A stretch of 64,000 nt of DNA, taken from the NCBI GenBank assembly GCA_038249055.1, contig JBBRWS010000004.1, forward strand, positions 17,939-81,938. Reading direction: 5' to 3'. This document shows positions 24,838 to 42,964 of the stretch, piece by piece. Source of the DNA: Minisyncoccia bacterium (lineage in GTDB: Bacteria > Patescibacteriota > Minisyncoccia > Phycocordibacterales > UBA9973). Each line of letters begins with the position of its first letter. Positions within the stretch are counted from its first letter, which is position 1. The notes below the pieces were generated by a model. That model did not search any database. It had not been told where the DNA came from and saw nothing but the letters and a program-made list of their open reading frames with translations. The translations under genes and the position numbers were made by a program.

Positions 24838-24853
24838 AAATTTATTTAATATA

Positions 24854-25528: not shown

Positions 25529-25546
25529 ATATTTTTATAAATTAAT

Positions 25547-25574: not shown

Positions 25575-25619
25575 GGAAGTGTGTTTAAGATGTTTAATAG
25601 CGATATTATAACAAATTAA

Positions 25620-25848: not shown

Positions 25849-25877
25849 AAAAAAGCCGGAAATAATTCCGGCCTTTT
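25849..25877. terminator. bidirectional terminator after the minus-strand 25892 CDS
   Basis: aaaaaagccggaaataattccggcctttt. Confidence 0.8.
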
Positions 25878-25891
25878 ATTTGTTTAGATGT

Positions 25892-26308: not shown

Positions 26309-26492
26309 GAGATTAAATATTAGATTGTTTTAAGAATTTATTTATATTTATGGTACCATACCTTTAAAATAATACAAATTTGAATAGTTGGTGCACTTTT
26401 AAAAAGTTGCAAGTTTTATACTAGTATGCTAGTATATGCGTAAGTACTAATGCACATTAAATTCAAAAATATAAATACAAAAACCAAATATT

Positions 26493-27608: not shown

Positions 27609-27620
27609 ATTAACAATTTA

Positions 27621-27660
27621 GGGATAATTATTTTTTATAAATAATTATCCCTTTTGTTTT
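27621..27660 (+). terminator. rho-independent terminator
   Basis: gggataattat (loop) ataattatccc followed by ttttgtttt. Confidence 0.75.
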
Positions 27661-27689
27661 GTAATTATTATATTGTATAATCAATCATT

Positions 27690-28508
27690 ATGCCTACTAA
27701 ATTTAATTTTAATAAAAAAAATAATATCTTAATAGGGGCAGTGCACTTGCCTCCACTTCTTGGGTATCCAGATTTTCCTGGTTTTGAAATAGCACTTAGA
27801 AATGCAAAAACCGATTTAGAAACATTTCAAAAAGCTGGATTTGATGCAGTTATTATCGAAAACAATTATGATATTCCTCATTTTGAAAATGTTAACCCAT
27901 CTATAGGAATTTCTATGAGTATTTTGTGTTATCAATTAAAACAAATAGCAACAATACCCATAGGAATAAGTGTATTGTGGAATGATTATAAAACCGCACT
28001 TTCTATTGCAAAAACTATAGGGGCGGATTTTATTAGAATTCCTGTTTTTGTAGATACCGTTGAAACAAGTTACGGTGTTATTAAAGGTAACTCAAAAGAG
28101 GTTATTGATTTTAGAAAAAGTATAGACGCAGAAAATATTTTAATTTATACTGATATACACGTAAAACACGCGAAATTACTTTCTTCCTATTCTTTAATTG
28201 AATCAGCGACAAAGGCTATATCTGAGGGTAGTGATGGTCTAATAATAACCGGTAAATGGACAGGTGAACAACCTTCAATGGAAGACCTAAGGTCGGTTCG
28301 TGAATCTGTTGGCGATTTTCCAATTATTGCTGGAAGCGGTGTTGATAATAAAAATATTAAAGAAATATTTTCTTATGCGAACAGTTGCATTGTAAGTACT
28401 TCAGTAAAAGAAGGCATAAATAACAATAAAGAAATAAATATAAAAAACTATTCACAAAGAATTAACTTAGAAGAATGTATAAAATTAGTAAAAACAGTCA
28501 ACAATTAA
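27690..28508 (+). CDS. BtpA/SgcQ-family TIM-barrel protein
   Basis: LIGAVHLPPLLGYPDF...DAVIIENNYDIP matches the BtpA N-terminal signature. Confidence 0.65.
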   Translation: MPTKFNFNKKNNILIGAVHLPPLLGYPDFPGFEIALRNAKTDLETFQKAGFDAVIIENNYDIPHFENVNPSIGISMSILCYQLKQIATIPIGISVLWNDYKTALSIAKTIGADFIRIPVFVDTVETSYGVIKGNSKEVIDFRKSIDAENILIYTDIHVKHAKLLSSYSLIESATKAISEGSDGLIITGKWTGEQPSMEDLRSVRESVGDFPIIAGSGVDNKNIKEIFSYANSCIVSTSVKEGINNNKEINIKNYSQRINLEECIKLVKTVNN

Positions 28509-28521
28509 ATATAAAAATAAT

Positions 28522-28806
28522 ATGAAAAAAATTAAAACGAATGATTTAATTGATATAATAAATTCTATAAATAATGATAAAAATCTTTTAAATTCTTTTT
28601 TGACAGATTTATTGACACCAGCAGAATATACGGAAATAAAAAAACGTTGGGAAATTGTAAAAATGCTGAATGAGGGTATAAATCAACATCAAATATCAAA
28701 AAGTCTTCACGTTGGAATAGCTACAGTAACGCGAGGTTCTAGAGCCATAAAAGATTCAAAAGGTGGTTTTAAGAAAGTTTTAAATCAAAAAGACCATCTC
28801 AACTAA
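28522..28806 (+). CDS. YerC/YecD-family TrpR-like DNA-binding protein
   Basis: LLTPAEYTEIKKRWEIVKMLNEGINQHQISKSLHVGIATVTRGSR aligns with B. subtilis YerC. Confidence 0.7.
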   Translation: MKKIKTNDLIDIINSINNDKNLLNSFLTDLLTPAEYTEIKKRWEIVKMLNEGINQHQISKSLHVGIATVTRGSRAIKDSKGGFKKVLNQKDHLN

Positions 28807-28822
28807 TTAGCAGAGATGGTCT
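28791..28822. terminator. hairpin between convergent genes (agaccatctc / gagatggtct)
   Basis: A 10-bp stem. The YerC stop codon lies in the loop. Confidence 0.55.
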
Positions 28823-28852
28823 ATGATGGTTTAATTTTCAAATACACACTTT

Positions 28853-29953
28853 TCATGAAGTAATAATATCAGAGATTAATAAGTCGATTATTTTCTTATT
28901 TACATGTTGCATTACAACAATATGAGCTCTATCATTTTTTGTAGCAAGTTGCCACTTATTAATGATATTTTTTGATGGCTTATCAAAAGTTACAATATTT
29001 GAATTAATATTTAACTTAGGATTATAATGTATATCCATAAGCATCTTTTCCAAATATTTTGCATTTTCAATACATTCGATAGCTTCTTTTTTGAATCCGA
29101 TAATTCCCTTATTGTTTATTAATGCCCACAAAAATACTGCGAGCTGGCCATTTCTGGAGCCTGAGATAGTTGTATCGTCTGAGTCTATATATTCTATACA
29201 GTCGACAAAACTACCATGCGGTTTTTCTTTTGAAAGAAAAACACCAGAAGGAAAGGGGATACCAAAAAATTTATGAGCTGAGAGAGAAATACTATTAATA
29301 GGTTTATTAAAATTTAATTCATGTTCAATGCCTAAAAAGGGAAGAAACCCTCCAAATAAGGCTGCATCACAGTGAATATAAAAATTTTCATGTGATGTTT
29401 CTTTGAGTATGGATAAAACTTTATCAACATCATCAATAGCTCCATCAAAAGTAGTTCCTATAGTTAAATTAAGAATAGGAATTTTTCTTTCCTTGGATAA
29501 GAGATCATAAAGGTTTTCATAATTCATTTCACCATTTGATGATTCAACTTCCGCATATGGAACATTAAGAATAACTGAATTTTTCTTAATTGAATAATGC
29601 CCATCTGCTGAGTAAATTACTCCATCTGGATACTTGTTTCTTCCAAGAAGAAGCCCCATCAAATTACTTTCTGTTCCACCATTCGTAAGGTATCCCCACG
29701 AATTTTGGTCAAGGTTATAAATTCCTTTAAAGAATTCGAGCACTTTTTGCTCATATTCTTTTGAGTGCATTCTGTACGAACCATCCGTACAGCTTGGATC
29801 ACCTACATTGTTAATAACAAAATCAAAGAATTTATAAAATTCTGAAAAATCATTATTAAGATTACCAGGAAAACCTAGCATAAATGGAGCACTAGATTGC
29901 AGTCGCCAGTAAAACTGGCGCATTTCATCAGTCAACGTTATTAAAGCTTTCAT
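28853..29953 (-). CDS. PLP-dependent histidine decarboxylase-family (group II) decarboxylase
   Basis: SWGYLTNGGTESNLMGLLLGR and PLP-Lys context ISLSAHKFFGIPFPSGVFL. Close to bacterial HdcA (about 378 aa). Confidence 0.75.
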   Translation of the reverse strand: MKALITLTDEMRQFYWRLQSSAPFMLGFPGNLNNDFSEFYKFFDFVINNVGDPSCTDGSYRMHSKEYEQKVLEFFKGIYNLDQNSWGYLTNGGTESNLMGLLLGRNKYPDGVIYSADGHYSIKKNSVILNVPYAEVESSNGEMNYENLYDLLSKERKIPILNLTIGTTFDGAIDDVDKVLSILKETSHENFYIHCDAALFGGFLPFLGIEHELNFNKPINSISLSAHKFFGIPFPSGVFLSKEKPHGSFVDCIEYIDSDDTTISGSRNGQLAVFLWALINNKGIIGFKKEAIECIENAKYLEKMLMDIHYNPKLNINSNIVTFDKPSKNIINKWQLATKNDRAHIVVMQHVNKKIIDLLISDIITS

Positions 29954-30140
29954 ATTGCTTATATTTAATTTTTAGGGCAAAATTGCCAACTATCCTTACT
30001 TAAAATGATACTACGCTAAATTACATTAGTCAATATGGCTGAATAATGTCTAAATGCATTTAGCACTTTTGTATATTTTGTATGCTATCGCACATATACT
30101 GTTTTTTTGCGAGTGGAGAAAAAATAAATAAAATTATATG

Positions 30141-30296
30141 ATATAATACGACCTATATGACATGGTTTATTATTGTAGTTGGAGCTTCATTTTTATGGGT
30201 ATTGGTAAATATTGCCAATCAATACCTTGTTTCTAAATTTTCTCAAAAGGAAAAGAGTTCCGGTGGTCTTGTTTTATTTTCTAGTCTCAGAAGTAT
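30141..30296 (+). repeat. diverged direct duplication (copy A) of the EamA-transporter promoter-proximal region and 5' coding end
   Basis: About 80% nt identity to 37295-37443. The atataatac...atgacatggttt stretch is shared. Confidence 0.7.
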
Positions 30297-30342
30297 GTTT
30301 ATTAGTATTTTTAATGTTTCTAGTTTATATACATTAATTTAA
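30157..30342 (+). pseudogene. N-terminal fragment / paralog of the EamA-like transporter gene (61 codons)
   Basis: MTWFIIVVGASFLWVLVNIANQYLVSKFSQKEKSSGGLVLFSSL compared with MTWFFIALGAPFLWAIVNIADQFLVSKYSEKEKERSSGGLVLFSSL at 37304. It then diverges and stops. Confidence 0.6.
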
Positions 30343-30407
30343 TTAATCTCATGAGGTTTATTTATTCTTAGGGTTATTTTATAAATTTAAAATATTTTTA
30401 ATAAATT

Positions 30408-31616
30408 ATGGAAATCAATATTACTTTATCGGATGAGGAATTAAAAGAAATAGCTTTAAAGCAGAATAAATCGATTGAGGAGGTTGCGAATGATTATAAG
30501 CACATGATAAAAGATTTAGGTTATTCAAATAAAAAACTTAACGAAATAATCGAGAACTCCGCCTATATCAGGTTTCCTAATAATTTTTTACTACACGGAT
30601 ACGGTAAAAACAACGAGCTTAACTCAAAATACTTATGCTATGATAATTTAGATATTTTTAATGAAATTCCAAAAACCGAGTTAGCTATAGTTACAGGATT
30701 CGGTCCTACTAATTCTCCAACCGCTGGTACGCTGTGTTCAATTTTTAGAGTACTTGAACTTCAAAAACTAACTGGAATTTATACTCATATAATTATTTCA
30801 GAATTAAGTGCATTAAATTCAAGACAAAAGCCATTAAATGAACTAATAAAAAATTCTCATCAGTTTATATCATTTATTAAAAAATTAGGCTTTGATGAGA
30901 AAAATGGTGAGATTAGAACACACAACCACCATGATCATTCTCGGGTATTTTCACTTGTTTCTAGTGTTTTAAGTATTAGTGATTTGCTCGAAAAAATAGA
31001 AGTCACCAATGATACGTATAAAAGACTGCAATTACTTGGAAACGATTTCTCAAAAATGGTGAGCAGAACATATACAATGACAGACATTATATTACCAATA
31101 GTACGTGATAAAAAACGAGGAGTAATAGTTCCATTAGGATTGGAAGAACACCACCATCCTCATTTAGCGAGAATAGCACTAAATAGAATGAAACTAAAAA
31201 TAGGAGGTCTGGATAGTTTAGTTAAACACGACGCTGAAATTGGAGCATTACACGGGAAGCTTATTAGCGGTTTCTTTCCTTATGTTAAAATGTCAAAAAG
31301 TATTCCTGATTCTTCAATAAATCTAGGAGATAGTGAAGAAGAATTACATAAAAAAATAATAGAATGCGGGATAAGAAATGAAGAGGTTATTTTACAAATG
31401 ATGATACTTGCTTCCAATTGGAGTCCTGATAGATTAAATGAGGCAAAAAGTGCCTTTGAAAATTTAACAATAGATTACAAGCGATGGGAAAAGATAAAAT
31501 ATGACTATTTAAAGTTTTTTACTGAAATTAAAACTCTTTGGGAGGAGTCAAAATATGATAAAGAAATTAATACACACGAAGAGCTATTTTCAAATATAGG
31601 GGACACGGAAAAATAA
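30408..31616 (+). CDS. divergent tryptophanyl-tRNA-synthetase-like class I aaRS paralog (402 aa, N-terminal extension)
   Basis: Degenerate HIGH region TGFGPTNSPTAGTL (compare TrpRS TGxxPSGxxTIGN). KMSKS is intact (YVKMSKSIPDS). Confidence 0.55.
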   Translation: MEINITLSDEELKEIALKQNKSIEEVANDYKHMIKDLGYSNKKLNEIIENSAYIRFPNNFLLHGYGKNNELNSKYLCYDNLDIFNEIPKTELAIVTGFGPTNSPTAGTLCSIFRVLELQKLTGIYTHIIISELSALNSRQKPLNELIKNSHQFISFIKKLGFDEKNGEIRTHNHHDHSRVFSLVSSVLSISDLLEKIEVTNDTYKRLQLLGNDFSKMVSRTYTMTDIILPIVRDKKRGVIVPLGLEEHHHPHLARIALNRMKLKIGGLDSLVKHDAEIGALHGKLISGFFPYVKMSKSIPDSSINLGDSEEELHKKIIECGIRNEEVILQMMILASNWSPDRLNEAKSAFENLTIDYKRWEKIKYDYLKFFTEIKTLWEESKYDKEINTHEELFSNIGDTEK

Positions 31617-31650
31617 AAAAACACTACAATATAAGATTATTGTAGTGTTT
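31614..31650. terminator. bidirectional terminator between the convergent TrpRS-like gene and trpS
   Basis: aaaaaaacactacaat ataagatt attgtagtgttt. Confidence 0.8.
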
Positions 31651-31678
31651 CTAGATTTCAGTTTGTTGAGAAAAAAAA

Positions 31679-32686
31679 TTAATTTTCTTCAAAACCCATG
31701 GCTTTTTCAACTCTTTGGATAACCTCATTGGCATTTGCGCGAGCAATAGAGATGCCTTTTTTCAAAACTTCAGCCACTTGTTCATCTGAAATTTGTGTGC
31801 GTCTCTTTTGAAAAGAAGTAGTGAACTCAATGATAATATCAGCAACAAGTGTTTTGAATTTACCCATCACTTTCTCACCATTGAGATGTTGTTCAATAAG
31901 CGCATTAACTTCGCCTAATCTTTCTGGAGCGATAGCTTTTACAATAGCAACAAGATTGTCGAGCTTTTCACTTGTTTGCCCTTCGATGGCAGTCTCAGCT
32001 CTTTTCATTTTCTTTCTGATGTCTTCTGGACTATCATTAAGAAAAATTGCTCCTTCTGGTTTACTCTTGCTCATTTTTCCATCCCCAGTTAGTGACAAAA
32101 TGTTTACTGGTTCGTCGATGTTCATGGTTTCTGGACGGACAACAATTTTTCCGCCATTGCCATACTTGTTATTAAAAGCGTCAGCAAGTTCGCGAGCAAC
32201 TTCCATATGAGAAAATTGATCTTTTCCTACTGGAACCAACTGAGCATCCTGCAAGAGAATATCAGCTGCCATCATAATTGGATATGCCATAAGGAGGACG
32301 GTTGCTTGTTCTGGATTTTGTCCATCTTTTAATTTTTCCTTCAAAGTTGGCACGCGAGTCGCACGAGAAACAGTAATATGACGCTCGAGATAAAGTTTGA
32401 GCAAGGCAACCTCTTTGCGGAGACCACGTTGGTCAAAGATAACTATTTTCGATGGGTCTAATCCCAAAGCAATATAGTCCTTCACGATATCGCCTACTTT
32501 TAACTGTTCGGGTTCATGATCTGTTAGACCATGTAGAGTTGCAACGAAAACTAAAATTTCGCTTGATTCATTCAGCTTCTGCAATTCCAACAAAGGAAAT
32601 GTAGCACCAATCAAATTAGCGATAGTCAGGGTTGCAGTAGGTCTGATTCCTGTCAAAATTCTTTTCTTTGATTCTATTTTTTCCAT
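31679..32686 (-). CDS. trpS: tryptophanyl-tRNA synthetase
   Basis: RILTGIRPTATLTIANLIGA (a TIGN-type HIGH variant, as in Bacillus TrpRS) and KMSKSKPEGAIFL. Confidence 0.85.
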   Translation of the reverse strand: MEKIESKKRILTGIRPTATLTIANLIGATFPLLELQKLNESSEILVFVATLHGLTDHEPEQLKVGDIVKDYIALGLDPSKIVIFDQRGLRKEVALLKLYLERHITVSRATRVPTLKEKLKDGQNPEQATVLLMAYPIMMAADILLQDAQLVPVGKDQFSHMEVARELADAFNNKYGNGGKIVVRPETMNIDEPVNILSLTGDGKMSKSKPEGAIFLNDSPEDIRKKMKRAETAIEGQTSEKLDNLVAIVKAIAPERLGEVNALIEQHLNGEKVMGKFKTLVADIIIEFTTSFQKRRTQISDEQVAEVLKKGISIARANANEVIQRVEKAMGFEEN

Positions 32687-32883
32687 GGTTATATTTTTTA
32701 ATGAATTTATAGTGAATTATATCATTTTATGAGAAAATGTCAATGCTATAAATCTGATTAATTCTAATAATATCAGTATAGTTTTTTACTTTAAAATAAG
32801 CAAACTCAAATGTATCGTTATAATACAATTTATTGACACTTAATCTATTCATTGATATAATATTGTTTACTAAATTAAATATT

Positions 32884-34008
32884 ATGTATAATACTTTTTT
32901 AAGTGATAAAAATATTAGAGAACCGTACGAAACATTTTACAAACTGAATATTGGTTTATCGATTGATGAGTTTGAAGCACAAAACGCTATGCTGGAAATC
33001 TTTAATGAAAAAGACTTACAGAAAAAAACATATCTATTGACAATGTTACTAAATGGAATAATGATTAAGGGTCCTTCTGTGTCTGAGGTAAAAGGTTTAA
33101 TTAATGCTTCTTTATCCTTAGATGGTATACAAAAAAAACAAAAAATTACATTACCAAATAATGAATTGTTGGTTGGCGTAGCTGGTAGTGGAAAAAAGGG
33201 TTTTAAAACTATAAACATAACTACACCTGCTAGTTTTGTTGCTGCTGCCTGTGGTGCATATGTTGCAAAAGCGTGTTCTCATTCGACGTCGTCAAAAACA
33301 GGTTCCTCCGATTTTTTAGAATTAGTAGGTATTAATATAGATATTCCTTTTGTGGAAAAAGTAGAAATTTTGAAAAAGAAGAAAATTTCTTTTTTTTCAA
33401 TTGAGGATACTACTCCAAAATTTGCGGATGTTTATGGGGGTATATTTCATGCACCGCATGCAATGAGTTTTGCTTTGGCTGGGCTTAGCTTTCCGATACA
33501 AATTGATACTCTTGTGTATGGTTTATCACATCCTAATATTAAATTGTCTTTAGAGGTATATAAAGAATATGGTTTTAAAAATGTTTTAGTCTACTCATCT
33601 AGTGAGGATGGGGTACATTTTTTAGACGAACTCTCCATATCCGGGCGTGTAAATATCATTGGTATGAAAAATTATAAAGTTGGACAAACAGTATCAGCTA
33701 ACATAATAGATGAGTTTCCTTTTTTCTCAAATAGTAATTTAAAAGAATTAGCAGAAAAGGAATATCCAATTGATAACGTGAAATGTTCTCTAAAGGTACT
33801 TAATGGTACAGGTCTAAAAAGTCATATTGAAACTATATGTCTTAATGCGGCACCAATTATTCTTGCGGCTGGAAAAGTCAATTCATTAAAAGAGGGATAT
33901 TTGTTGGCAAAGAAAAATATTGAAAATGGAGAAGTATTTAAATTATTTTTAGAAGTTGTTGAATTGTATGGAGGAGATAGAAATAAAATATATAATATAA
34001 TTGACTGA
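32884..34008 (+). CDS. TrpD-like glycosyltransferase-family-3 protein, paralog 2 (degenerate GTGGD); the ORF could begin at 32833
   Basis: VGVAGSGKKGFKTINITTPASFVAAACGAYVAKACSHSTSSKTGSSDFLELVGI. Confidence 0.6.
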   Translation: MYNTFLSDKNIREPYETFYKLNIGLSIDEFEAQNAMLEIFNEKDLQKKTYLLTMLLNGIMIKGPSVSEVKGLINASLSLDGIQKKQKITLPNNELLVGVAGSGKKGFKTINITTPASFVAAACGAYVAKACSHSTSSKTGSSDFLELVGINIDIPFVEKVEILKKKKISFFSIEDTTPKFADVYGGIFHAPHAMSFALAGLSFPIQIDTLVYGLSHPNIKLSLEVYKEYGFKNVLVYSSSEDGVHFLDELSISGRVNIIGMKNYKVGQTVSANIIDEFPFFSNSNLKELAEKEYPIDNVKCSLKVLNGTGLKSHIETICLNAAPIILAAGKVNSLKEGYLLAKKNIENGEVFKLFLEVVELYGGDRNKIYNIID

Positions 34009-34915
34009 GAAAAATAGACAAGTTATGAATACAATACACAATAACAATCGTCATCCAGAAATTTTTCTGGGAACTTGGCGTATGGGAGGGGATGTTGAGG
34101 TAAATCCAAACAATGACGATGGAAGAGATGTTGACGCTATAAAATATGCAATTACTAGGGGTATTTCTCATATTGATACCTCAGAAAGTTATGCAAATGG
34201 CAAAACCGAGTTACTCATCAGTGATGCAATAAGACAATTTTCTAGAGATAGGTATTTTATAGCAACCAAAGTTCGTGAATACAATCTCTCTTATGATAAT
34301 ATCATTCGCTCTTGTATGAAATCTCTAGAAAGGCTAAATGTGTCATATATTGATTTATATTATATTCACAAACAAAATCCTCTTGTTGCAATAGAAGATA
34401 TCGCGAGAGCATTAAATAAACTGATGGAAATGGGTCTAATTAAAAATGTGGGGTTAAGTAATGTTGGAATTAATACAATAAAAAAATATTCCCAACTACT
34501 AAATAAACCAGTGTATGCGGTTCAAAATCAATATAATCTAGTCTGTCGTGAATCGCAAAGAAAGGGTATTATAGATTATTGTAAAAAAAATGGCATTAAG
34601 TTCATTGCGTGGAGACCTGTTCTACTTTCGTATCCCGGAGTCATAGACCCTTATTATCGTACTGGCACATATCAACTTCTAGATGAAATGGCTCAAAAGT
34701 ACAATAAATCAAATACTCAAATTGTAGCTAAATGGCTTTTACAGCAAGATGGTGTTTCAATTGTTTTTAAAAGTTCAAATAAAAAACATATTGATGAGAT
34801 TTTAGATGTAGACAATTTTAATCTTTCTGAAGCTGATTGGAATATCTTAGATAAAAATTTTCCAGTACAAAAAGATGTCGGATGTACTGCTGATGCATAC
34901 TTTGAGGTGTCATAA
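34001..34915 (+). CDS. aldo/keto reductase
   Basis: IDTSESYANGKTELLI...IATK and the wider aldo-keto reductase (AKR) fold pattern. It overlaps the upstream gene by 8 nt. Confidence 0.8.
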   Translation: MTEKNRQVMNTIHNNNRHPEIFLGTWRMGGDVEVNPNNDDGRDVDAIKYAITRGISHIDTSESYANGKTELLISDAIRQFSRDRYFIATKVREYNLSYDNIIRSCMKSLERLNVSYIDLYYIHKQNPLVAIEDIARALNKLMEMGLIKNVGLSNVGINTIKKYSQLLNKPVYAVQNQYNLVCRESQRKGIIDYCKKNGIKFIAWRPVLLSYPGVIDPYYRTGTYQLLDEMAQKYNKSNTQIVAKWLLQQDGVSIVFKSSNKKHIDEILDVDNFNLSEADWNILDKNFPVQKDVGCTADAYFEVS

Positions 34916-34937
34916 TAAAATAAAAATATAAAACTAT

Positions 34938-36032
34938 ATGAAAAAAGAACATAGTACCGTACTAGAATTAGTAAAATATGGTAACAAAAAAATAGATAAG
35001 TTATTGGAGATACTTGACGATAAAACCATAAATTGGATCGAGGTCTTGGGATACCTGTGTTATCATCGTGTTAGTGGGCTTGCCTATGAGATTATGAACT
35101 CAATTGAGGTAAGGAAGCTCGATTTTCCTGTATTTTTTACAATATATATGATTCATGAGTCTCAAGGAATAAGAACAAATTTGCAAAAAGAATATATAAA
35201 AATAATTTCTTCTAAATTATGCGAAGCTAATATAAAGCATGTTTTCTTAAAGGGGTCTGTTTTATCAAGTACTATTTATCCGATAGGCGCTAGGGCCTCT
35301 AATGATATTGATATATTGGTATCAAAAAAATCAATTTTAGAAGCTAAAAATGTATTGAATGATTTAGGGTTTTTGCAGGGTAAATATGATTACAAAAAAG
35401 ATGCCATCGATGAGGCTGACCAAGATGCACTTACAAAAAGTCTGAACACTAGAGGCGAAATGTTTCCATTTATTAAAATAATTAACGAGAGAACCGCTAA
35501 AACTATAGATGTTGATGTTAATTTCTCACTAGATTGGACACCAAATTCTTCGGATAGCGCAGTTGATTATTTTTTAGAAGAACGAACTCTTCTTCCTGTT
35601 GATGGAGATTTTTCAATTTATTCTTTAACAGAAGAACATTTATTTATCCATTTGTGTAGCCACCTATACAAAGATGCGGCTTTATTAGACATTGTGAAAA
35701 AAAGAAAAGTACTAGACCTGTATAAATTTGTTGATATATATACATTTATTCAAAAGTATTTCGAGCGGATTAATATTGAAAAGATATATAAAGATTCTGT
35801 AAAATATGGTTTTGATAAAAATGTTTTCTTCACACTAAATTACACCTCTATAATTTTTCCAGAGATATTGGAAATACCTAATGTTGTTTTACTTCATAAA
35901 AAATTTAATTATATAAACGATAATGTTATGGAAGAAATTTTTGACCAGGATAATCCTGAAAACAAAATGATAGATAGAGGTGGTTTAATTGATAGATTAT
36001 TTTCGTATGATATCATAAATAAATATAACTAA
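34938..36032 (+). CDS. Pol-beta-superfamily nucleotidyltransferase (NTP_transf_5 / PF14907-like)
   Basis: FLKGSVLSSTIYPIGARASNDIDILV carries the GS...DxD nucleotidyltransferase signature. Confidence 0.55.
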   Translation: MKKEHSTVLELVKYGNKKIDKLLEILDDKTINWIEVLGYLCYHRVSGLAYEIMNSIEVRKLDFPVFFTIYMIHESQGIRTNLQKEYIKIISSKLCEANIKHVFLKGSVLSSTIYPIGARASNDIDILVSKKSILEAKNVLNDLGFLQGKYDYKKDAIDEADQDALTKSLNTRGEMFPFIKIINERTAKTIDVDVNFSLDWTPNSSDSAVDYFLEERTLLPVDGDFSIYSLTEEHLFIHLCSHLYKDAALLDIVKKRKVLDLYKFVDIYTFIQKYFERINIEKIYKDSVKYGFDKNVFFTLNYTSIIFPEILEIPNVVLLHKKFNYINDNVMEEIFDQDNPENKMIDRGGLIDRLFSYDIINKYN

Positions 36033-36046
36033 TAATTGAAATTCCT

Positions 36047-37210
36047 ATGAATAATTTAACCTTAAGCACAGAATTATCTGAAATATTTAGTTGTAGTATT
36101 AAAACTATAAAAAATGATTTAAACCATACATTTCATACGATGATGAGTGATAGTCTGACGACAACTATTACATGTAACTATGCCTTATGTTCTGATCATT
36201 TGAAGGAATTCAGTAGTACTTTTAATGCTCTGATGAAACCTTCGCAGAATAATAGTCGTACTATCATTAGTGCTTTTGTTTTAGAAAATGAAGATATTTT
36301 CCAAAAAATAGAATCTGTGTTTCTATATGAAGGTTGGTCAAAGAACAGTGATATAAATAAATTTAATTTAGCAACTCATGATACATCCAGAGCTAAATGC
36401 ACAGCTGAAAATAAGTTTTACATAATTAAATGCTATGATCATTTTTATTATATTTATAACACAGAATCTAATGAGTGCCTGCTTGTAGTAAAGGACGAAA
36501 AAAAAGCTTTGACTATGATTAATATTTTATTACTATCGCCATATTTATCATATGGTGATTTATATGCTATCCATGGTGGATTGGTAAGTAATGGAAATAA
36601 TAATATCCTTCTTACTAATTTATCTTTGGGTGGAAAAACCACATTTGCTTTGCTTTTTTTAGAAAATGGATGGAAAATTGTGACAGAGGAAACTACATAT
36701 ATTACAAAACATGGACAGATACTAAATTATAATATAAGAAATTATTTCAATATCAGAGTTGGTACATATTTGGAATTTAAAGATTTTTTTATGAAAGCTG
36801 GTATTGTTAATGACTTCTTTTTAAGTATGGCAAACATGGATAAAAATGAATTATTTAAACTTGGGAAGAAAGAACAAATGCTAATATATTTTGATATTTT
36901 ATCTAAGGATAAAGCTAATTTACCAAATGATCAGATAACCCATACATTAAGAGTTTCTCTTGATAAAAACAAATCCGGTATTACGATTGAGAGTAGTAGT
37001 GGTCATGAAGAGATTGTCGACGGGTTCCTAGAAATAAGTTTTGCACCAACTGTTACACTTTTTAAAGGTCTGTTAAAGATAACTAATGTAGTTAAAGAAA
37101 AAAGTAAAAATGGGTTAATGCAAATATTCAAAACTGTAAAAAGTTACTCGTTAATATCTGGTCTTGATTACAGAAAAAATTTTGATTTTCTAATACAAGA
37201 AATAAAGTAA
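36047..37210 (+). CDS. HPr-kinase/phosphorylase C-domain-like P-loop protein
   Basis: IHGGLVSNGNNNILLTNLSLGGKTTFALLFLENGWKIVTEETTYI compared with the HprK_C consensus lHG..v...g.GvLltG.SGiGKSe.aLeLi.rGh.LvaDD.v. Confidence 0.5.
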   Translation: MNNLTLSTELSEIFSCSIKTIKNDLNHTFHTMMSDSLTTTITCNYALCSDHLKEFSSTFNALMKPSQNNSRTIISAFVLENEDIFQKIESVFLYEGWSKNSDINKFNLATHDTSRAKCTAENKFYIIKCYDHFYYIYNTESNECLLVVKDEKKALTMINILLLSPYLSYGDLYAIHGGLVSNGNNNILLTNLSLGGKTTFALLFLENGWKIVTEETTYITKHGQILNYNIRNYFNIRVGTYLEFKDFFMKAGIVNDFFLSMANMDKNELFKLGKKEQMLIYFDILSKDKANLPNDQITHTLRVSLDKNKSGITIESSSGHEEIVDGFLEISFAPTVTLFKGLLKITNVVKEKSKNGLMQIFKTVKSYSLISGLDYRKNFDFLIQEIK

Positions 37211-37294
37211 ATAAAACTCCTTTATAAAGATTTTAGTAAAGTTTTAGAAGAAGCATGTCTGTATATTAAAACAATATAAAGATTTTATGTTACA

Positions 37295-37443
37295 ATATAA
37301 TACATGACATGGTTTTTTATTGCACTTGGAGCTCCATTTTTATGGGCAATTGTAAATATTGCGGATCAGTTTCTAGTTTCTAAATATTCAGAAAAAGAAA
37401 AGGAGAGGAGCTCTGGGGGGCTTGTTTTATTTTCTAGTCTCAT
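37295..37443 (+). repeat. diverged direct duplication (copy B) at the start of the full-length EamA transporter gene
   Basis: Pairs with 30141-30296. Confidence 0.7.
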
Positions 37444-38224
37444 AGGTATTTTTATTGCTATTTTTATTGCTATCTTTACAACTGGTATTTTAGATGTAAG
37501 TAATTTAGATATTATTTTATTGCTTTTAGCTGGAGGATTATCTATTGTTTGGATTATTTTATATTTATACGCTATTGAAATTGAAGATATTTCAGTTATT
37601 GTACCTTGGTTTTTAACTGTCCCTATTTTTGGATTTATTCTAGGTTATATTTTTCTAGGAGAAACATTATCTACCTCGCAAATTTTTGGTTCCATTGTTG
37701 TATTTTTTGGGTTGATTTTACTTTCTATTGATTTTTTCGAGAGAAAGATTACTGCAAAAAAGAAAACAATTATATACATGCTTATTGCGTCTTTAATAAT
37801 TGCTTGCTCTGGTGTTTTATTTAAATTTGTAACGATTGAGGGTAATTTTTGGGTATCTTCATTCTGGGAATATTCTGGATTAGGAATAACAGGCTTATTT
37901 TTATATATCTTTATTCCTAAATATCGTAATGAATTTTTGTATATGCACAGAATGGGAGGAAGAAAGATTCTTATGGTTAATATAACAAGTGAATTAATGA
38001 CTATTTCAGGTAATTTAATGACAAATTTTGCCTTATTGTTGGCTCCAGTAAGTATGGTTTATCTTGTGGGAAGTTTTCATCCGGCGATTGTTTTAATTTT
38101 AACTATTATCGGTTCAAAATTTTTCCCTCATATTATAAAAGAAAATATTTCAAAAAAAGCTCTACTTCAAAAATTTATCGCAATTTTTATTATGATTATA
38201 GGCAGTGTATTTTTATTTAAATAA
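37304..38224 (+). CDS. EamA/DMT-superfamily transporter (about 10 TM helices)
   Basis: Multi-TM hydropathy pattern with two EamA-like halves. Confidence 0.6.
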   Translation: MTWFFIALGAPFLWAIVNIADQFLVSKYSEKEKERSSGGLVLFSSLIGIFIAIFIAIFTTGILDVSNLDIILLLLAGGLSIVWIILYLYAIEIEDISVIVPWFLTVPIFGFILGYIFLGETLSTSQIFGSIVVFFGLILLSIDFFERKITAKKKTIIYMLIASLIIACSGVLFKFVTIEGNFWVSSFWEYSGLGITGLFLYIFIPKYRNEFLYMHRMGGRKILMVNITSELMTISGNLMTNFALLLAPVSMVYLVGSFHPAIVLILTIIGSKFFPHIIKENISKKALLQKFIAIFIMIIGSVFLFK

Positions 38225-38339
38225 TTACTATAAATTAGGATTTTTAGGACTTATATAATTAATTAATAAAAAATTACGGCGGGGTTTACAAAATAAATTT
38301 TAAATTGTAGTATCTAGGTGAATCTTTAAATCATAAACA

Positions 38340-38816
38340 ATGAAGAAAATCGTTTTTTTAATGGCGATGATTGCTGTAGTTTTTACAGTTTCCGCCCAGG
38401 AAAAAACAGGGATAAAAGTTATCCCTGAAGTTAGGCTCGAGCCAGTCGTCTGGTTTGGTGGAGATAAAATGGTCTTTGAACCCACTGTGTCTATGGGTGC
38501 AAGGTTTGAACTCGGAAACTTTTCGGTTTTTCCGGCCTACAATGTTGGCTATTCTGACGAAGTTTGTCACAGCATGATCCTTTCTATCGATTATGTCCCT
38601 AAAAAATTTGGGGGATATTTGTATCTTAGTAAAGACCTTGGTTCGGAATATTTATATTCCGAAATAGGAGTGCAGTACATCTTTGCTTTTGGAAAGAAAG
38701 AAAGATTCAAAATCAATCCATTTGCCGGAGTCGGTCGTGATATGATCATTTACCCAGGTGATCCATTAGAATTTTACGCTACATTAGGTGTAAACTTTAT
38801 TTATTCTTTTAAATAG
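38340..38816 (+). CDS. hypothetical secreted protein
   Basis: Signal peptide MKKIVFLMAMIAVVFTVSAQE. Confidence 0.5.
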   Translation: MKKIVFLMAMIAVVFTVSAQEKTGIKVIPEVRLEPVVWFGGDKMVFEPTVSMGARFELGNFSVFPAYNVGYSDEVCHSMILSIDYVPKKFGGYLYLSKDLGSEYLYSEIGVQYIFAFGKKERFKINPFAGVGRDMIIYPGDPLEFYATLGVNFIYSFK

Positions 38817-38856
38817 GATATTCTCCTATAGAAAAAATCACCTAAAAAAACAAAAA

Positions 38857-38895
38857 AGAACCAAGAAAATTTATTTGACTTGGTTCTTTTTAATC
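38857..38895 (+). terminator. rho-independent terminator (9-bp stem, 13-nt loop, T5)
   Basis: agaaccaag...cttggttct ttttt. Confidence 0.6.
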
Positions 38896-39063
38896 TAAAA
38901 GTTCGCCTGATACTTACGTAGGGTTTATTTGGTCCATATTTACTTTTTGATAATGATTGTGGGTAGTGTATTCTTATTTGTATAAAATAATCTATACATG
39001 GATTATTTTTGGAATTAATGGTATAATTAAATATTAAATAGAACGAGGTATCTAATACCCCAT

Positions 39064-39885
39064 ATGGACAAACCTTTAGACTATAATAAAATAATGTCAG
39101 ATAAAAATCTTTTTAACGAGACTATTTATACTACACTTTCTGATGCAATAAAAATTCTTGAAGAAAGACAAAAGGACCCAAAAATTATAAAAAAAATTGA
39201 GGAGCTTTTAAAAGGTGATATACCTGAACCTCTAAATAAGATTGGGAAATATGGTATAAACGAAAAACAAGTAGCAACTCCAAGTTATGATACAAAATGG
39301 TTTATTGATTTAACTCAAAATAATGGATTATTACCAGTTTTTTTTGAATACCATAGTGATAAATTTACTTCAAATAATCATTTTAAACATTCTTTGGGTC
39401 AGTTGCGTATACACGATAACCATAATGATAAAAAAGGGGATAATATTGAAGAAAAAATAACTATTGTAGATTTTAATAAATACAATGGAAAGCCTTTGTG
39501 TGAAGTTAATACACTTTGGGGTGAACCATTAATATTATTTCACAAGAGATTGTTTGAAGCATGTGATTATAAGATTAATGATATAATATTCTCAGACTTT
39601 TCCGGGTGGCTAAAAAGAAATGGAGGTAGTGCCGAAAAATATTATGAAAAAGATTTGTTGTTATATATATGCCACGGTATTCTTTTTGAAAATTTTTTAA
39701 TGACTGACGATACCGAGGGAAATTTTACAAGAAATATATTTTTACCCGCTTTTGAAAAAGTTATAAAATTAACTGGATTAAAACCTTTAATAGTTCCAAT
39801 TCCACCAATGGACAATGAAGAAGACTCCCACTGGATTTCATATAATAAAATAATTAAAACACAAATTAATTTAATTAATTCATAA
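39064..39885 (+). CDS. hypothetical protein
   Basis: An ORF with no recognised motifs. It is the first gene of a tightly packed four-gene string. Confidence 0.45.
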   Translation: MDKPLDYNKIMSDKNLFNETIYTTLSDAIKILEERQKDPKIIKKIEELLKGDIPEPLNKIGKYGINEKQVATPSYDTKWFIDLTQNNGLLPVFFEYHSDKFTSNNHFKHSLGQLRIHDNHNDKKGDNIEEKITIVDFNKYNGKPLCEVNTLWGEPLILFHKRLFEACDYKINDIIFSDFSGWLKRNGGSAEKYYEKDLLLYICHGILFENFLMTDDTEGNFTRNIFLPAFEKVIKLTGLKPLIVPIPPMDNEEDSHWISYNKIIKTQINLINS

Positions 39886-39909
39886 TATATTATAATTTAA
39901 TTTTAAAAA

Positions 39910-40263
39910 ATGGATAAAAAAAATAAAATTTTATACACAACAGCATCAATACTTATTTTATTAGTAGTTGTAATAACAGCTTATAAAATTTTTATATTGC
40001 ATGACTACATGATTTCTTATGAAGTTGCTTGTGACCCAAAAATAGACACGTGCTATGTTTATAGTTGTGTTGAAACTACCGGTGATGAAAATTGTATAGA
40101 TTCAGAAGTTGAATATTATAAAATAATAGAAAGAAAAGCATCTCAGTCCTTAATGTGTGAATATAATAATCTTGATTGTTCTGTTTGCTTGGAAAATGAA
40201 ATTAATTGTCAAATTATAACTTGTGATTCTTCTTTAGAAGAAAATACTTGTAGTATTTTATGA
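39910..40263 (+). CDS. small Cys-rich membrane-anchored protein (13 Cys in the extracytoplasmic part)
   Basis: An N-terminal TM helix followed by C-rich repeats (CDPKIDTCYVYSC, CSVCLENEINCQIITC). Confidence 0.45.
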   Translation: MDKKNKILYTTASILILLVVVITAYKIFILHDYMISYEVACDPKIDTCYVYSCVETTGDENCIDSEVEYYKIIERKASQSLMCEYNNLDCSVCLENEINCQIITCDSSLEENTCSIL

Positions 40264-41285
40264 TACATAAGATAGTCTTTTTGGGGTTAAATAATGATAC
40301 TTTAATTTTACTCAATAAAAATAAGTCGTTTAATGTTATAGGTGTAAATTATTATGAATATTTTGATATTTGTACTCTTAACCCATTTGATTATATATTT
40401 TGTTTAGCTTATAAATTACATTATAAAAAAAAATCAAATGTAATATCTAAATTAATTTTTAAAATTTGGTGCATGTTGTCGGTTTTTTCAAGTAAAATAT
40501 ATAAAGAAAATAAAGAATATTTAAACTGTATATTAATGCATAAAATAGAAATCATAGACACTGAAGATGTTCATTATTTTTCTTCATTTATAACCTCAAA
40601 TGCAATAGATTTGCTAGTTATTAATTCATGGGGAATTATTCCAAATATAATTTTGACTTTACCAAAATTTAAAACTTTAAACATTCATCCATCATTGTTA
40701 CCTAAATATAGAGGTGCATTGCCAACGCTGTGGTCTTTAAAAAATAAAGATACAGCTACTGCTCTTACTTATATTGTATTAAATGACTCAATAGATGATG
40801 GCTTAATTGTGGCGCAACATGTTTTTAGTATAAATGAATTAGACGATTGGAAGAGTTTGGAGATAAAAATTTCTAAACTATTAAATGTGACTTTGTGTAA
40901 TGATATTTTAAATTATTTAAATAATACTTTTGTTCCAATTAAAACGACCTGTGATCCGTCATATACTGATTATTATAATAAATACAGAAGAATAGATTTA
41001 TTAAATGAATATTCAAGAGATATTTATAATAAGGTAGGACTATATCCTTACATAGAGCCATTTTTTTATTGTTACATAAAAATTTTAGATAGAAAAATAT
41101 TCTTAAAAAAGATTTATTATTATAAAAAGATAAATATAATCTTAGTCCCTGGTGGTATATATTTGGGATTAGGTTTTATTCTTTTTTTCTCAAAAGATGG
41201 TATACTCAAATCATATCTTTTTAAAGATATGCAATTTAGAGATAGTATTTTTATTATTTTTAAAAAAATAACATCAAAAATATGA
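40260..41285 (+). CDS. formyltransferase-family protein (Fmt/PurN/ArnA-like catalytic core) with a C-terminal TM segment
   Basis: LNIHPSLLPKYRGALPTLWSL...LNDSIDDGLIVAQ carries the catalytic Asn/His/Asp of formyltransferases. It overlaps both flanking genes by 4 nt (ATGA). Confidence 0.6.
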   Translation: MIHKIVFLGLNNDTLILLNKNKSFNVIGVNYYEYFDICTLNPFDYIFCLAYKLHYKKKSNVISKLIFKIWCMLSVFSSKIYKENKEYLNCILMHKIEIIDTEDVHYFSSFITSNAIDLLVINSWGIIPNIILTLPKFKTLNIHPSLLPKYRGALPTLWSLKNKDTATALTYIVLNDSIDDGLIVAQHVFSINELDDWKSLEIKISKLLNVTLCNDILNYLNNTFVPIKTTCDPSYTDYYNKYRRIDLLNEYSRDIYNKVGLYPYIEPFFYCYIKILDRKIFLKKIYYYKKINIILVPGGIYLGLGFILFFSKDGILKSYLFKDMQFRDSIFIIFKKITSKI

Positions 41286-42964
41286 TTTGTCCAAGTTACC
41301 CAACTCCATTTTTATATATTTTTTCTGAACAAGTTCCACAACTTTTGTATTATTCACACTTACCCCTTATTTTTATTTCCATTTTTATAGGTTTTTTTGT
41401 TTTGATTAAAGATAAAAAATCAAAATTAAGCATAGCATTGTCAACACCCCTATTCATTTTTTCTATTTGGTTGATATTTGATTTAATTACATGGACAAGT
41501 AATTCAAGTGACAACATAATGTTTGTCTGGTCTTTTTTTGGTATACTTTTTATTTCTTTAATTTATTTCTTTTTACGTTTTTTGTATATATTTTTTGAGG
41601 ATAAAGAAATCCCATTCTATTTATCATCGATAATATTTATTTTATATTTACCAGTTTTATTTTTAACTTTTACATCTTTAAATTTGTCCATTTTTGATTT
41701 AGTGCAATGTAGCTCTATAGAAAATAATTATTTCGTCGCCTATTATTATTCCATTGGAGTATTAATATTTATTTATCTTTGTTACTTTGTTGCAAAGCAC
41801 TATATTAGGTCCGACTCTTTTTCAAAATCTAAGATCTTACTAACTGGAGTTGGCACTATATTATTTTTGATTTTCTTTTTTTTAACTGGAATCATGGTTA
41901 CTATATTAAAATATTTTAATATAGTAAAGGATTTTCAGATTGAACAATATGGCTTTTTCCCGATTATTATTTTTATAATATTACTCGCTCTGACTGTTAT
42001 AAAATATAAAGTATTTAACATTAAGCTTTTAGCAGTTCGTTCTTTAGTGTTTGCGCTAGCTTTTTTAATCGGTTCTCAATTTTTCTTTATAAAAGTAACA
42101 ACAAATTTTATTTTAAATGGTATCACTTTTGTCGGGGTTATCATTTTTGGTCAATCTCTTATAAAATCAGTCAAAAAAGAAATCGAGCAAAAGGAATATC
42201 TTGAAAAACTTTCAGAAATGTTGAAACATTCAAGAACTCGTCTTGAAGAAGCAAATGTAAAATTACAAAGCTTGGATAAACTTAAAACTGAATTCGTTTC
42301 TTTGGCCTCACATCAACTACGTAGCCCCCTTACAGCTATTAAAGGTTATACTTCAATGCTTCTTGAGGGAGACTATGGAGAAATAAACCCACAGGCAAGA
42401 GAAATCGTTGAGAGAGTAGCAGAATCAAGCAAAAACCTAACATTGGTAGTTGAAGACCTTCTAAATGTTGCCAAAATTGAACAAGGAGGAATGAAATACG
42501 AAATAGATAAAGTTGATTTTAGTGAACTAGTTGAAAATACAGCGAGGGATTTATCTATTACTGCAGAAAAGAAAGGCTTGAAATTAATTGATAGTATTCC
42601 AAAAGATCAAAAATTCTTTGTTAGTGGAGATAAGGAAAAACTTAGACAGGTTTTGATTAATTTGATTGATAACTCAATGAAATATACTCCCTCTGGTCAA
42701 ATAGAAGTAAACATGAATTTCAAAGATGGAAAAATTCTTTTATCTATTAAAGATACAGGAGTGGGAATATCAAAAGAAGTAATAGGAACTTTGTTTGCAA
42801 AGTTTTCTCGCGGAGATGGTGCCAAATTAAATAGTACTGGTACAGGTCTTGGACTATACTTGGTAAAAGAAATTGTAGAAGCTCACCATGGCCGAGTCTG
42901 GGTAGAATCAGAGGGCACTGGTCACGGCTCAACATTCTTTGTGGAAATTGAAGGGGTGGAGTAA
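41282..42964 (+). CDS. sensor histidine kinase with an about 8-TM N-terminal domain
   Basis: HisKA H-box LASHQLRSPLTAIKGY and the N, G1 and G2 boxes (LIDNSMKYTP, DTGVGI, GTGLGL). Confidence 0.85.
   Translation: MICPSYPTPFLYIFSEQVPQLLYYSHLPLIFISIFIGFFVLIKDKKSKLSIALSTPLFIFSIWLIFDLITWTSNSSDNIMFVWSFFGILFISLIYFFLRFLYIFFEDKEIPFYLSSIIFILYLPVLFLTFTSLNLSIFDLVQCSSIENNYFVAYYYSIGVLIFIYLCYFVAKHYIRSDSFSKSKILLTGVGTILFLIFFFLTGIMVTILKYFNIVKDFQIEQYGFFPIIIFIILLALTVIKYKVFNIKLLAVRSLVFALAFLIGSQFFFIKVTTNFILNGITFVGVIIFGQSLIKSVKKEIEQKEYLEKLSEMLKHSRTRLEEANVKLQSLDKLKTEFVSLASHQLRSPLTAIKGYTSMLLEGDYGEINPQAREIVERVAESSKNLTLVVEDLLNVAKIEQGGMKYEIDKVDFSELVENTARDLSITAEKKGLKLIDSIPKDQKFFVSGDKEKLRQVLINLIDNSMKYTPSGQIEVNMNFKDGKILLSIKDTGVGISKEVIGTLFAKFSRGDGAKLNSTGTGLGLYLVKEIVEAHHGRVWVESEGTGHGSTFFVEIEGVE

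Follow-up and report, generated by a model that had tools for sequence, protein, structure and literature searches.

The nucleotidyltransferase and kinase genes and the island that carries them

The DNA analysed here, referred to as the window, is a stretch of 64 000 nucleotides (nt) of contig JBBRWS010000004.1 (positions 17 939 to 81 938) from the Minisyncoccia bacterium assembly GCA_038249055.1, and all coordinates are those of the window unless another locus is named. The genes of interest are two neighbours on the forward strand. The first, here called NT5 (34938-36032, +), encodes a 364 aa nucleotidyltransferase with a Pol-beta fold that belongs to PF14907 (NTP_transf_5). The second (36047-37210, +) encodes a 387 aa P-loop kinase with a fold shared by phosphoenolpyruvate carboxykinase (PEPCK) and HprK ('HprK-like'), from a family that has no Pfam model. 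A gap of 14 nt (36033-36046) separates them. A first-pass annotation, made from the sequence alone, had singled out these two open reading frames (ORFs), and both of them, the gap between them and the peptides quoted in support were all found in the translations of the window.

The pair lies within a six-gene island of 6.85 kb (30379-37223) that has DNA homology to two other loci, L006 and L005. In a blastn comparison with L006, the closest relative, identity of 87-90 % was found only over 30379-32809 and 32847-37223, and the flanks are unrelated. The other four genes encode a divergent class Ic (Trp/Tyr-type) aminoacyl-tRNA synthetase (aaRS) paralog, designated aaRS_A (30408-31616, +, 402 aa), a bacterial-type tryptophanyl-tRNA synthetase (TrpRS; 31679-32686, -, 335 aa), a TrpD-like phosphoribosyltransferase (32884-34008, +) and an aldo-keto reductase (AKR; 34001-34915, +, 304 aa). 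The aaRS_A gene converges on that for TrpRS, and the four forward-strand genes for TrpD-like, AKR, NT5 and kinase are separated by tiny gaps.

Between the TrpRS and TrpD-like genes there is a divergent promoter region (32716-32861) with two sigma-70 sites, at 32833-32861 (+) and 32743-32716 (-). Both match the consensus at 12/12 positions and include an extended -10 element, and they are the only perfect matches. The total number of promoter-like sites did not exceed that in shuffled sequences, and the two perfect sites are promoters by prediction. By their position, these back-to-back sites suggest an operon with the order TrpD-like > AKR > NT5 > kinase, of which NT5 and the kinase would be the last two genes, with TrpRS transcribed divergently. 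A search for operators in the promoter region yielded nothing beyond a trivial AT palindrome. No T-box or other RNA element was found on cluster genes when positions 24000-42000 of the window and seven loci from Bacilli were scanned with Rfam; the T-boxes detected in two loci (L002 and L016) precede unrelated MetRS-like genes only.

The left border of the island is formed by the truncated 5' end of an EamA transporter gene (30154-30396, +), which includes a remnant ORF of 61 aa (30157-30342). An intact EamA gene starts at position 37304, 94 nt past the kinase gene. The two form direct repeats (30154-30396 and 37301-37576) that are ~75-83 % identical and ~7150 nt apart. This duplication of the EamA 5' end on either side of the island points to recombination at or close to an EamA gene as the way in which the island was acquired.

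NT5 is a PF14907 nucleotidyltransferase

In the Pfam scan, NT5 scored 106.5 bits with PF14907, for which the gathering score is 31.2 (E=2.2e-30), and NT5 residues 31-307 cover positions 3-248 of the 249 in the model. NT5 is thus a member of the family, and its close homologs are all annotated as PF14907. The catalytic set consists of G106-S107, D123-x-D125 and D193, and of these residues G106, D123, D125 and D193 do not vary among the 23 homologs that were aligned. The GS...DxD nucleotidyltransferase signature and the PF14907 assignment given in the first-pass annotation were therefore both borne out. With G[SG], DxD, a third acidic residue and the fold, NT5 has the hallmarks of Pol-beta nucleotidyltransferases and is predicted to be catalytic.

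The AlphaFold2 (AF2) model of NT5 is confident (predicted local distance difference test score, pLDDT, 91.5). Among solved structures, the closest folds to the model were those of the tRNA-modifying toxin MenT1 (E=4.7e-5), JHP933 and MenT3/TglT, followed by the small-molecule enzymes ANT(2'')-Ia and LnuA and the ribitol-phosphate transferase FKRP. PADLOC returned a weak AbiEii match for NT5 (E=3.6e-4). The isoelectric point of NT5 is acidic to neutral in many loci, which is weak evidence and says little on nucleic-acid binding.

The nearest relatives of NT5 outside the group of loci described below are 31-37 % identical to it and are found in small-molecule contexts, not in lasso peptide clusters. 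One such context includes AMP-binding (adenylation) enzymes, carrier proteins, a carbamoyltransferase and ABC exporters. The other includes guanylate-kinase-like, CysRS-like and QueC-like proteins and a radical SAM enzyme. An example of the latter is seen in L024 (10001-15417), where downstream of a distant PF14907 relative (37 % identical) come genes for guanylate-kinase-like, CysRS-like, QueC-like and radical SAM proteins and then for ABC exporters. This is a second, different combination of a nucleotidyltransferase, a kinase and a class I aaRS. In the three loci with distant NT5 relatives (L022-L024), no relative of the kinase or of aaRS_A was found.

The kinase is a rare branch of the PEPCK/HprK fold

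No Pfam model, PF07475 included, matched the kinase of the window, which missed the thresholds of the models for the HprK/P C-domain (PF07475 and TIGR00679). Its sole match to a curated model was to TIGR04355, 'HprK-related kinase B', at 17.3 bits compared with a cut-off of 200 (E=0.002). When the 22 aligned members of the family were scanned, TIGR04355 matched four (best E 6.5e-6), TIGR04352 two and PF07475 four (best E 0.028), in each case below threshold, and TIGR00679 matched one. The family is nevertheless well defined: there are at least 129 full-length homologs, 43-87 % identical, and H176-G-G, S193-L-G-G-K-T-T199, T213-E-E215 and an R/N-rich segment after them are invariant in 22 homologs. 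A profile of the kinase searched against 1.84 billion representative proteins gave 56 matches with E<=1e-3, 32 of them with E<=1e-10, and the most distant of the 56 link to HprK models, again below threshold.

The AF2 model of the kinase has a pLDDT of 90.1 and a predicted template modelling score (pTM) of 0.89. Foldseek aligned this model with ATP-PEPCK over ~386 columns, near the whole protein (E~3e-7, probability 1.0), although the TM-score is only ~0.43 and the identity 9-13 %. Matches of the model to the HprK/P C-domain were weaker (E 3e-3 to 5e-2). Sequence and profile searches of the PDB with the kinase gave only a P-loop match to KaiC. The predicted fold, together with the His, the GK[ST] P-loop and the acidic pair, places the kinase in the PEPCK-like P-loop kinase superfamily. 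As the matches to existing models are sub-threshold, the family is rare and the modelled fold is PEPCK-like, the kinase represents a branch of the PEPCK/HprK P-loop kinase fold that is new and rare and lies outside the HprK families. The first-pass description of an HprK C-domain-like protein was accordingly right about the P-loop kinase core, but HprK applies only at the level of the superfamily, as family thresholds are missed and the whole fold is nearer to PEPCK. Of the two Pfam families proposed for the pair, PF14907 was retained for NT5, whereas the kinase falls below PF07475 and has a PEPCK/HprK fold in its model.

The pair is part of a conserved mobile cassette

Contigs encoding homologs, matches from a genome scan and the window together represent ~20 independent loci. 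The scan covered 185 579 species genomes and found the kinase family in at least 17; it was pattern-based, and the number is therefore a lower bound. All-against-all clustering, supplemented with tblastn, covered 22 sequences, namely the window and L001-L021.

In every locus examined, NT5 is followed by the kinase gene, and the two are adjacent and codirectional with a gap of at most 24 nt or an overlap. Recurrence of the same gene order in all of the other loci examined shows that the adjacency in the window is not due to chance. Co-occurrence outside this genome, which had been set beforehand as a test of the first-pass annotation, was thus found in all of them. However, the pair is not the self-contained two-enzyme module that had been envisaged. 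The six protein families co-occur in the ~20 independent loci, and in every locus of sufficient length the pair is accompanied by TrpD-like, aaRS_A and a genuine TrpRS. The TrpRS, TrpD-like and AKR genes, which had been listed as neighbours, were confirmed by family matches and are conserved partners in one mobile cassette. TrpD-like is present in 20 of 21 loci and AKR in 19 of 21 (missing in L009 and L026). Two further genes, for a Cof-type HAD-IIB hydrolase (12 of the 22 clustered sequences) and a HAD of the beta-phosphoglucomutase/hexitol-phosphatase type (11 of 22), are mainly found in the Bacilli-type arrangement. They are missing from the Patescibacteria-type loci, the island in the window included.

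The cassette is discrete and has moved horizontally among Patescibacteria, reduced Bacilli of the gut and rumen and a small number of other lineages, mainly organisms with very small genomes; its conservation, rarity and mobility are well supported. Complete genomes that contain it include OZ007038.1 and BOLA01000001.1. The loci differ widely in G+C content, with 0.23 in gut Bacilli at the low end and 0.61 in a contig labelled Thermoanaerobaculia at the high end. Residence in such different genomes argues for real transfer between phyla over mis-binning alone, though the contigs labelled DPANN are short and could be mis-binned. No matches to the cassette were found in viral contigs or plasmids. 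Full-text literature searches aimed at the cassette found no description of it, in agreement with the earlier view that the module is uncharacterised. What is new here is a kinase and PF14907 pair in an aaRS-linked cassette unrelated to peptide tailoring, with a kinase family for which there is no existing model; the function that we propose for it below is an interpretation.

In ~7 loci (L001, L012, L014, L015, L016, L018 and L025), a gene of the RelA/SpoT family (HD, RelA_SpoT and TGS domains; ~480 aa) adjoins the cassette, on differing sides. This could be inherited synteny of Bacilli or a functional link to the sensing of uncharged tRNA. A small MerR/HTH_17 (excisionase-like) gene lies beside the cassette TrpRS gene in L004 (13593-13844) and L008 (7660-7848) and could be a regulator or the remnant of a mobile element.

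Partner genes of the cassette

The most conserved gene of the cassette is aaRS_A, with 58-90 % identity across loci and phyla and a mean column identity of 72 %. It scored 39.2 bits with PF00579, for which the threshold is 21.1 (E=6.8e-10), but misses every trpS and tyrS equivalog threshold by a wide margin, and neither sequence nor profile searches matched it to a PDB chain. Alignment with the cassette TrpRSs using hhalign gave a probability of 96.7 % over residues 93-322. Within this region aaRS_A keeps KMSKS, and D226 aligns with the specificity Asp of TrpRS, while HIGH is replaced by TAGT and GxDQ by GLEE. The N-terminal 92 and C-terminal 80 aa did not align with TrpRS, and no similarity to an anticodon-binding domain was detectable by hhalign. 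Invariant Trp residues are present in aaRS_A. From these features we infer that aaRS_A forms an adenylate of Trp or a similar aromatic amino acid, and that the acceptor may not be a normally recognised tRNA.

The TrpRS of the window, which is encoded within a block that is 87-90 % identical to L006, matches TrpRS structures in the PDB at E=1e-35 and contains TIAN, KMSKS and D141; it is predicted to aminoacylate. Two kinds of TrpRS occupy this slot in the cassette, and both pass the TIGR00233 trpS threshold of 176.75 bits (227.6 bits for the window protein and 230.7 for the other kind). The bacterial type is found in the window and several Patescibacteria-type loci. In the Bacilli-type loci, the TrpRS is of the Deinococcus radiodurans TrpRS-II type (E=1.8e-107 to 2a4m), and one locus (L007) carries both kinds. 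Retention of the slot, though it is filled by different lineages, argues that TrpRS activity is functionally required. The TrpD-like slot is likewise kept, with two subtypes. By eye, there is no Trp residue in the island TrpRS (31679-32686) or in the TrpD-like protein read from the ATG at 32884, and the other four island proteins contain Trp.

The TrpD-like ORF was called from a TTG at 32833, but the start is probably the ATG at 32884, downstream of the predicted promoter. The protein is a Glycos_transf_3 member (PF00591, E=3.8e-28) and not a TrpD equivalog, as it scored 132 bits with TIGR01245 for a cut-off of 199. When aligned to solved TrpD structures, GTGGD is replaced by GSGKK and KHGN by KACSH, and SSKxGSSD and LDE are retained. 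Retained motifs for 5-phosphoribosyl 1-pyrophosphate (PRPP) and metal together with altered acceptor motifs suggest that the enzyme would still use PRPP, with a different acceptor. In L014 (6055-7878, -), a single ORF of 607 aa encodes a HAD_2 phosphatase at residues 8-230 joined to the TrpD-like protein at residues 234-603; by Rosetta-stone reasoning, this fusion indicates that the two work one after the other. One lineage of Bacilli has a tRNA-Trp(CCA) gene as the direct neighbour of the TrpD-like gene (L002, 5933-6006).

AKR is a clear member of PF00248 (E=1.4e-57). In the same lineage of Bacilli (L002 7863-8720, also L003 and L020) the AKR gene appears to be fragmented: the called gene encodes 97 aa and tblastn similarity extends over ~850 nt. 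This may be a pseudogene or an assembly error.

A proposed function for the cassette

We propose, with about an even chance of being right, that the cassette makes or processes an intracellular, Trp-linked small molecule of a ribosyl or ribityl (nucleoside-like) kind, and that the kinase and NT5 act in tandem on one of its hydroxyls. The small-molecule character is argued from the recurrence of AKR and two HADs of the sugar- or alditol-phosphatase type, and from the HAD_2::TrpD-like fusion and a TrpD-like protein that keeps the PRPP and metal motifs with a changed acceptor site. The resemblance of the kinase over its full length to PEPCK, a small-molecule kinase, and of NT5 to ANT(2''), LnuA and FKRP points the same way. 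So do the next-nearest relatives of NT5, which adjoin genes for adenylation, carrier, carbamoyltransferase and exporter proteins or for guanylate-kinase-like and CysRS-like proteins. A link to Trp is indicated by a TrpRS that is always present in a slot filled by two TrpRS lineages, and by an aaRS_A that keeps KMSKS and the specificity-aligned Asp and lacks detectable similarity to an anticodon-binding domain. The chemical steps and the substrate set out below are suggested by the gene content, co-occurrence and mobility observed for the cassette and by the fold and family assignments and conserved motifs of its proteins.

In such a pathway, the TrpD-like enzyme would couple PRPP to an acceptor other than anthranilate, a HAD phosphatase would take off the 5'-phosphate and AKR would reduce a carbonyl. 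The kinase would then phosphorylate a hydroxyl of the intermediate, and NT5 would add a nucleotidyl or other phospho-linked group at the phosphorylated position. These two steps would follow the kinase-then-transferase logic of phosphoglycosylated lasso peptides, applied to a small molecule. A kinase followed by an adenylyltransferase is a general pattern that is also seen in FAD synthesis. Next, aaRS_A would convert Trp, or a closely related aromatic analogue, into the adenylate and esterify it to the ribose-like acceptor. Finally, the genuine TrpRS carried with the cassette would shield translation from a product resembling Trp-AMP (immunity) or supply Trp-tRNA.

A more specific form of the proposal, which we regard as improbable in its entirety, is that the cassette is a new pathway dependent on an aaRS paralog. 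Its product would be a tryptophanyl-nucleoside-like or -nucleotide-like mimic of Trp-AMP or of the 3' end of Trp-tRNA, serving as an effector directed at TrpRS or as a new cofactor. A repurposed TrpD would build the base-sugar, a repurposed TrpRS would attach the amino acid, the kinase, as a new small-molecule kinase of the PEPCK fold, and the PF14907 enzyme would finish the molecule and the co-transferred TrpRS would provide immunity. Exchange of the cassette among ultra-small episymbionts and gut bacteria would serve to manipulate Trp-dependent translation or to survive competition for it.

Several observations weigh against a small-molecule product. AKR is absent from two loci, and the HADs do not occur in the Patescibacteria-type loci. 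The best solved match to NT5, MenT1, is a toxin that acts on tRNA, so that a nucleic-acid substrate retains some likelihood. Those close relatives of the kinase P-loop core that have been characterized (HprK/P and lasso kinases) act on proteins or peptides. In addition, neither the neighbourhoods nor the clustering of loci revealed a conserved exporter or regulator in the cassette, which weakens the version of the proposal in which the product is a secreted antibiotic.

Alternative explanations

The cassette might instead be a translation system centred on tRNA(Trp), in which NT5 acts on the tRNA 3' end as MenT does, the kinase phosphorylates tRNA or regulates NT5, the TrpRS-type proteins recognise or recharge tRNA(Trp) and the TrpD-like protein binds nucleic acid in the manner of TrpD2/YbiB, so that Trp decoding is tuned under Trp limitation. 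We see this as an unlikely explanation but one to be taken seriously, because the closest solved folds to NT5 are the tRNA nucleotidyltransferase toxins MenT1 and MenT3, there are weak AbiEii matches, and two TrpRS-type genes are obligatory. [quoted passage not shown] However, AKR, two HADs of the sugar-phosphatase type and the HAD::TrpD-like fusion fit a tRNA substrate poorly, TrpD-like retains its PRPP and metal motifs, a tRNA gene is adjacent in one lineage only, and the Rfam scans described above found no RNA element on cluster genes. The acidic to neutral NT5 of many loci is a further, weak, point against. A protein-directed regulatory pair, in which the kinase phosphorylates TrpRS, aaRS_A or NT5 as HprK/P does HPr, NT5 nucleotidylates a protein and the two jointly switch the TrpRS-type enzymes, is distinctly less probable. 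The P-loop core does resemble those of the protein or peptide kinases HprK/P and HprK-related kinases A and B, and control of nucleotidyltransferase-fold enzymes by kinases has precedent, as PDB titles record MenT1 phosphorylated at T39 and TglT co-expressed with TakA. Yet the kinase reaches no family threshold, its fold match over the whole protein is to PEPCK, a small-molecule kinase, and the phosphoribosyltransferase, AKR and HAD members are left unexplained.

The first-pass annotation had drawn attention to tailoring of ribosomally synthesised, post-translationally modified peptides (RiPPs), and its statement that pairs of HPr-kinase homologs and nucleotidyltransferases tailor lasso peptides is correct. 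In lasso precursors it is the C-terminal Ser that the kinase homologs phosphorylate, and in the pseudomycoidin cluster the phosphorylated peptide receives hexoses from the nucleotidyltransferase (PMC8498205). If the pair described here phosphorylated and nucleotidylated or glycosylated a ribosomal peptide, as PsmK and PsmN do with the lasso peptide pseudomycoidin, the cooperation of the same two enzyme types in lasso clusters (PMC8498205) and the true PF14907 membership of NT5 would be accounted for. But the loci offer neither the machinery nor a substrate. No lasso cyclase (Asn-synthase-like), B protease or RiPP recognition element (RRE)/PqqD was found in the loci with Pfam calls (L001-L004, L025 and L026) or among the neighbours in the window, and the reported absence of lasso B/C or other RiPP maturases therefore holds. 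When ORFs of at least 20 aa were listed across 29900-37350, free short ORFs in the intergenic DNA of the cassette were found only in the EamA remnant region, and the other gaps are too small for a precursor gene. Among 235 intergenic short ORFs from 22 loci, clustering found none conserved beyond near-identical genomes, and thus none conserved across lineages. Moreover, lasso clusters do not contain the nearest outside relatives of NT5, and the kinase is below the PF07475, TIGR04352 and TIGR04355 thresholds. With no maturase, RRE or conserved short ORF in ~20 loci, RiPP tailoring is largely refuted and we consider it very improbable. No more credible is a pair of the AbiE/MenAT type for toxin-antitoxin or anti-phage defence purposes, with NT5 as toxin, a neutralising partner and metabolic genes with which they hitch-hike. 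The weak AbiEii matches (E=3.6e-4), the MenT-like fold and the mobility of the cassette would suit it. However, the pair was never seen apart from other cassette genes and so is not a stand-alone two-gene unit, the partner is a P-loop kinase, viral contigs and plasmids gave no matches, and PADLOC matched neither the kinase nor other cassette members. At 364 aa and with PF14907 architecture, NT5 is also unlike the MenT toxins of 190-300 aa. Of the three targets offered in the first-pass annotation, a small molecule fits best, a peptide is without support and a tRNA-linked substrate retains the lesser likelihood given above.

Comparison with known systems

The lasso tailoring pairs (the paeninodin and pseudomycoidin kinases with PsmN) resemble the pair described here in that the gene for a kinase with an HprK-type core adjoins that for a nucleotidyltransferase with a Pol-beta fold (PMC8498205), and in the presumed logic of phosphorylating a hydroxyl and then attaching a further group there. 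In contrast, the cassette has no precursor, RRE, cyclase or protease, and its partners are a phosphoribosyltransferase, AKR, HADs and TrpRS-type enzymes. The cassette kinase is also sub-threshold for HprK families and has a PEPCK-like two-domain fold; the comparison with PsmK and PsmN is by description only.

ATP-PEPCK and HprK/P are the best structural matches to the kinase. They share with it a GK[TS][TE] P-loop that has a His ~21 residues ahead of it and an acidic pair after it; the pair is DD in PEPCK and HprK and lies in TEE in the cassette kinase. ATP-PEPCK is longer (~530 aa compared with 387 aa), and identity is 9-13 % with a TM-score of ~0.4. HprK-related kinases A and B (TIGR04352 and TIGR04355) are the only curated models that repeatedly detect the kinase family and its distant relatives, and they do so weakly, at 15-30 bits for cut-offs of 200. 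The neighbourhoods of HprK-related kinases A and B include PqqD-like and ATP-grasp partners, which are absent around the cassette. The toxins MenT, AbiEii and TglT, together with ANT(2'')-Ia, LnuA and FKRP, have the Pol-beta nucleotidyltransferase catalytic fold in common with NT5. They belong to other families, whereas NT5 is PF14907, has extra N- and C-terminal helical regions and has no partner of the antitoxin type.

Clusters for antibiotics directed at an aaRS, such as those for indolmycin (TrpRS), albomycin (SerRS) and agrocin 84 (LeuRS), carry a resistant form of the target synthetase, and ascamycin provides an example of an aaRS-like tailoring enzyme. The cassette is similar in having a second, mobile synthetase of the target type amid small-molecule enzymes, and about half of the cassettes have the auxiliary type represented by D. 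radiodurans TrpRS-II. It differs in having no conserved exporter or regulator and none of the known pathway enzymes of these clusters, and in occurring in hosts with very small genomes.

In the part of their paper that was available, Mukai et al. [quoted passage not shown] They also note Trp-free TrpRS genes in groundwater CPR bacteria (PMC5370408). These operons are like the cassette in that additional TrpRS-type genes have moved laterally in the same kinds of organisms. However, a cluster of nucleotidyltransferase, kinase, TrpD-like and AKR genes is not mentioned in the part available, the cassette has neither tRNA-Trp(A73) nor ORF1, and aaRS_A has invariant Trp, in which TrpRS-A1, as described there, differs (PMC5370408).

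If the proposed function is correct, PF14907 enzymes and kinases with the HprK/PEPCK fold gain a role outside RiPP tailoring, and a protein family that lacks a model, with 56 matches among 1.84 billion representative proteins, is defined. The proposal would also bring out an enzyme derived from TrpRS that is very conserved and probably has no part in charging tRNA, and the six genes would form a compact, testable target for heterologous expression. The hosts, Patescibacteria and reduced Bacilli of the gut and rumen, retain few accessory genes and are considered to be Trp-limited. The spread of the cassette in such hosts suggests a selectable function tied to Trp or translation in host-dependent microbes.

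Genes upstream of the island

Just upstream of the island (26493-28806 and 28853-29953) are genes for a second TrpD-like protein, a BtpA/SgcQ TIM-barrel protein, a Trp repressor and a histidine decarboxylase. The second TrpD-like protein is 26 % identical to the island copy and is also sub-threshold for TIGR01245 (143 bits). The Trp-repressor-family gene (PF01371, E=4.9e-22) is the one noted above, ~1.6 kb from the island. The decarboxylase is a histidine decarboxylase equivalog (NF002748, 390 bits compared with 305), and a related decarboxylase gene also flanks the cassette in one lineage of Bacilli (L002, L003 and L020).

Further upstream, 5-6 kb from the island (23914-25528), genes for an inosine-uridine nucleoside hydrolase and a HAD phosphatase place ribose and nucleoside chemistry near a cassette that has no HAD of its own. 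Genes for proteins like Orn/Arg decarboxylase and deoxyhypusine synthase and for a member of the arginase/agmatinase family lie in a row at 20231-23861 and look like a module of the polyamine/hypusine type.

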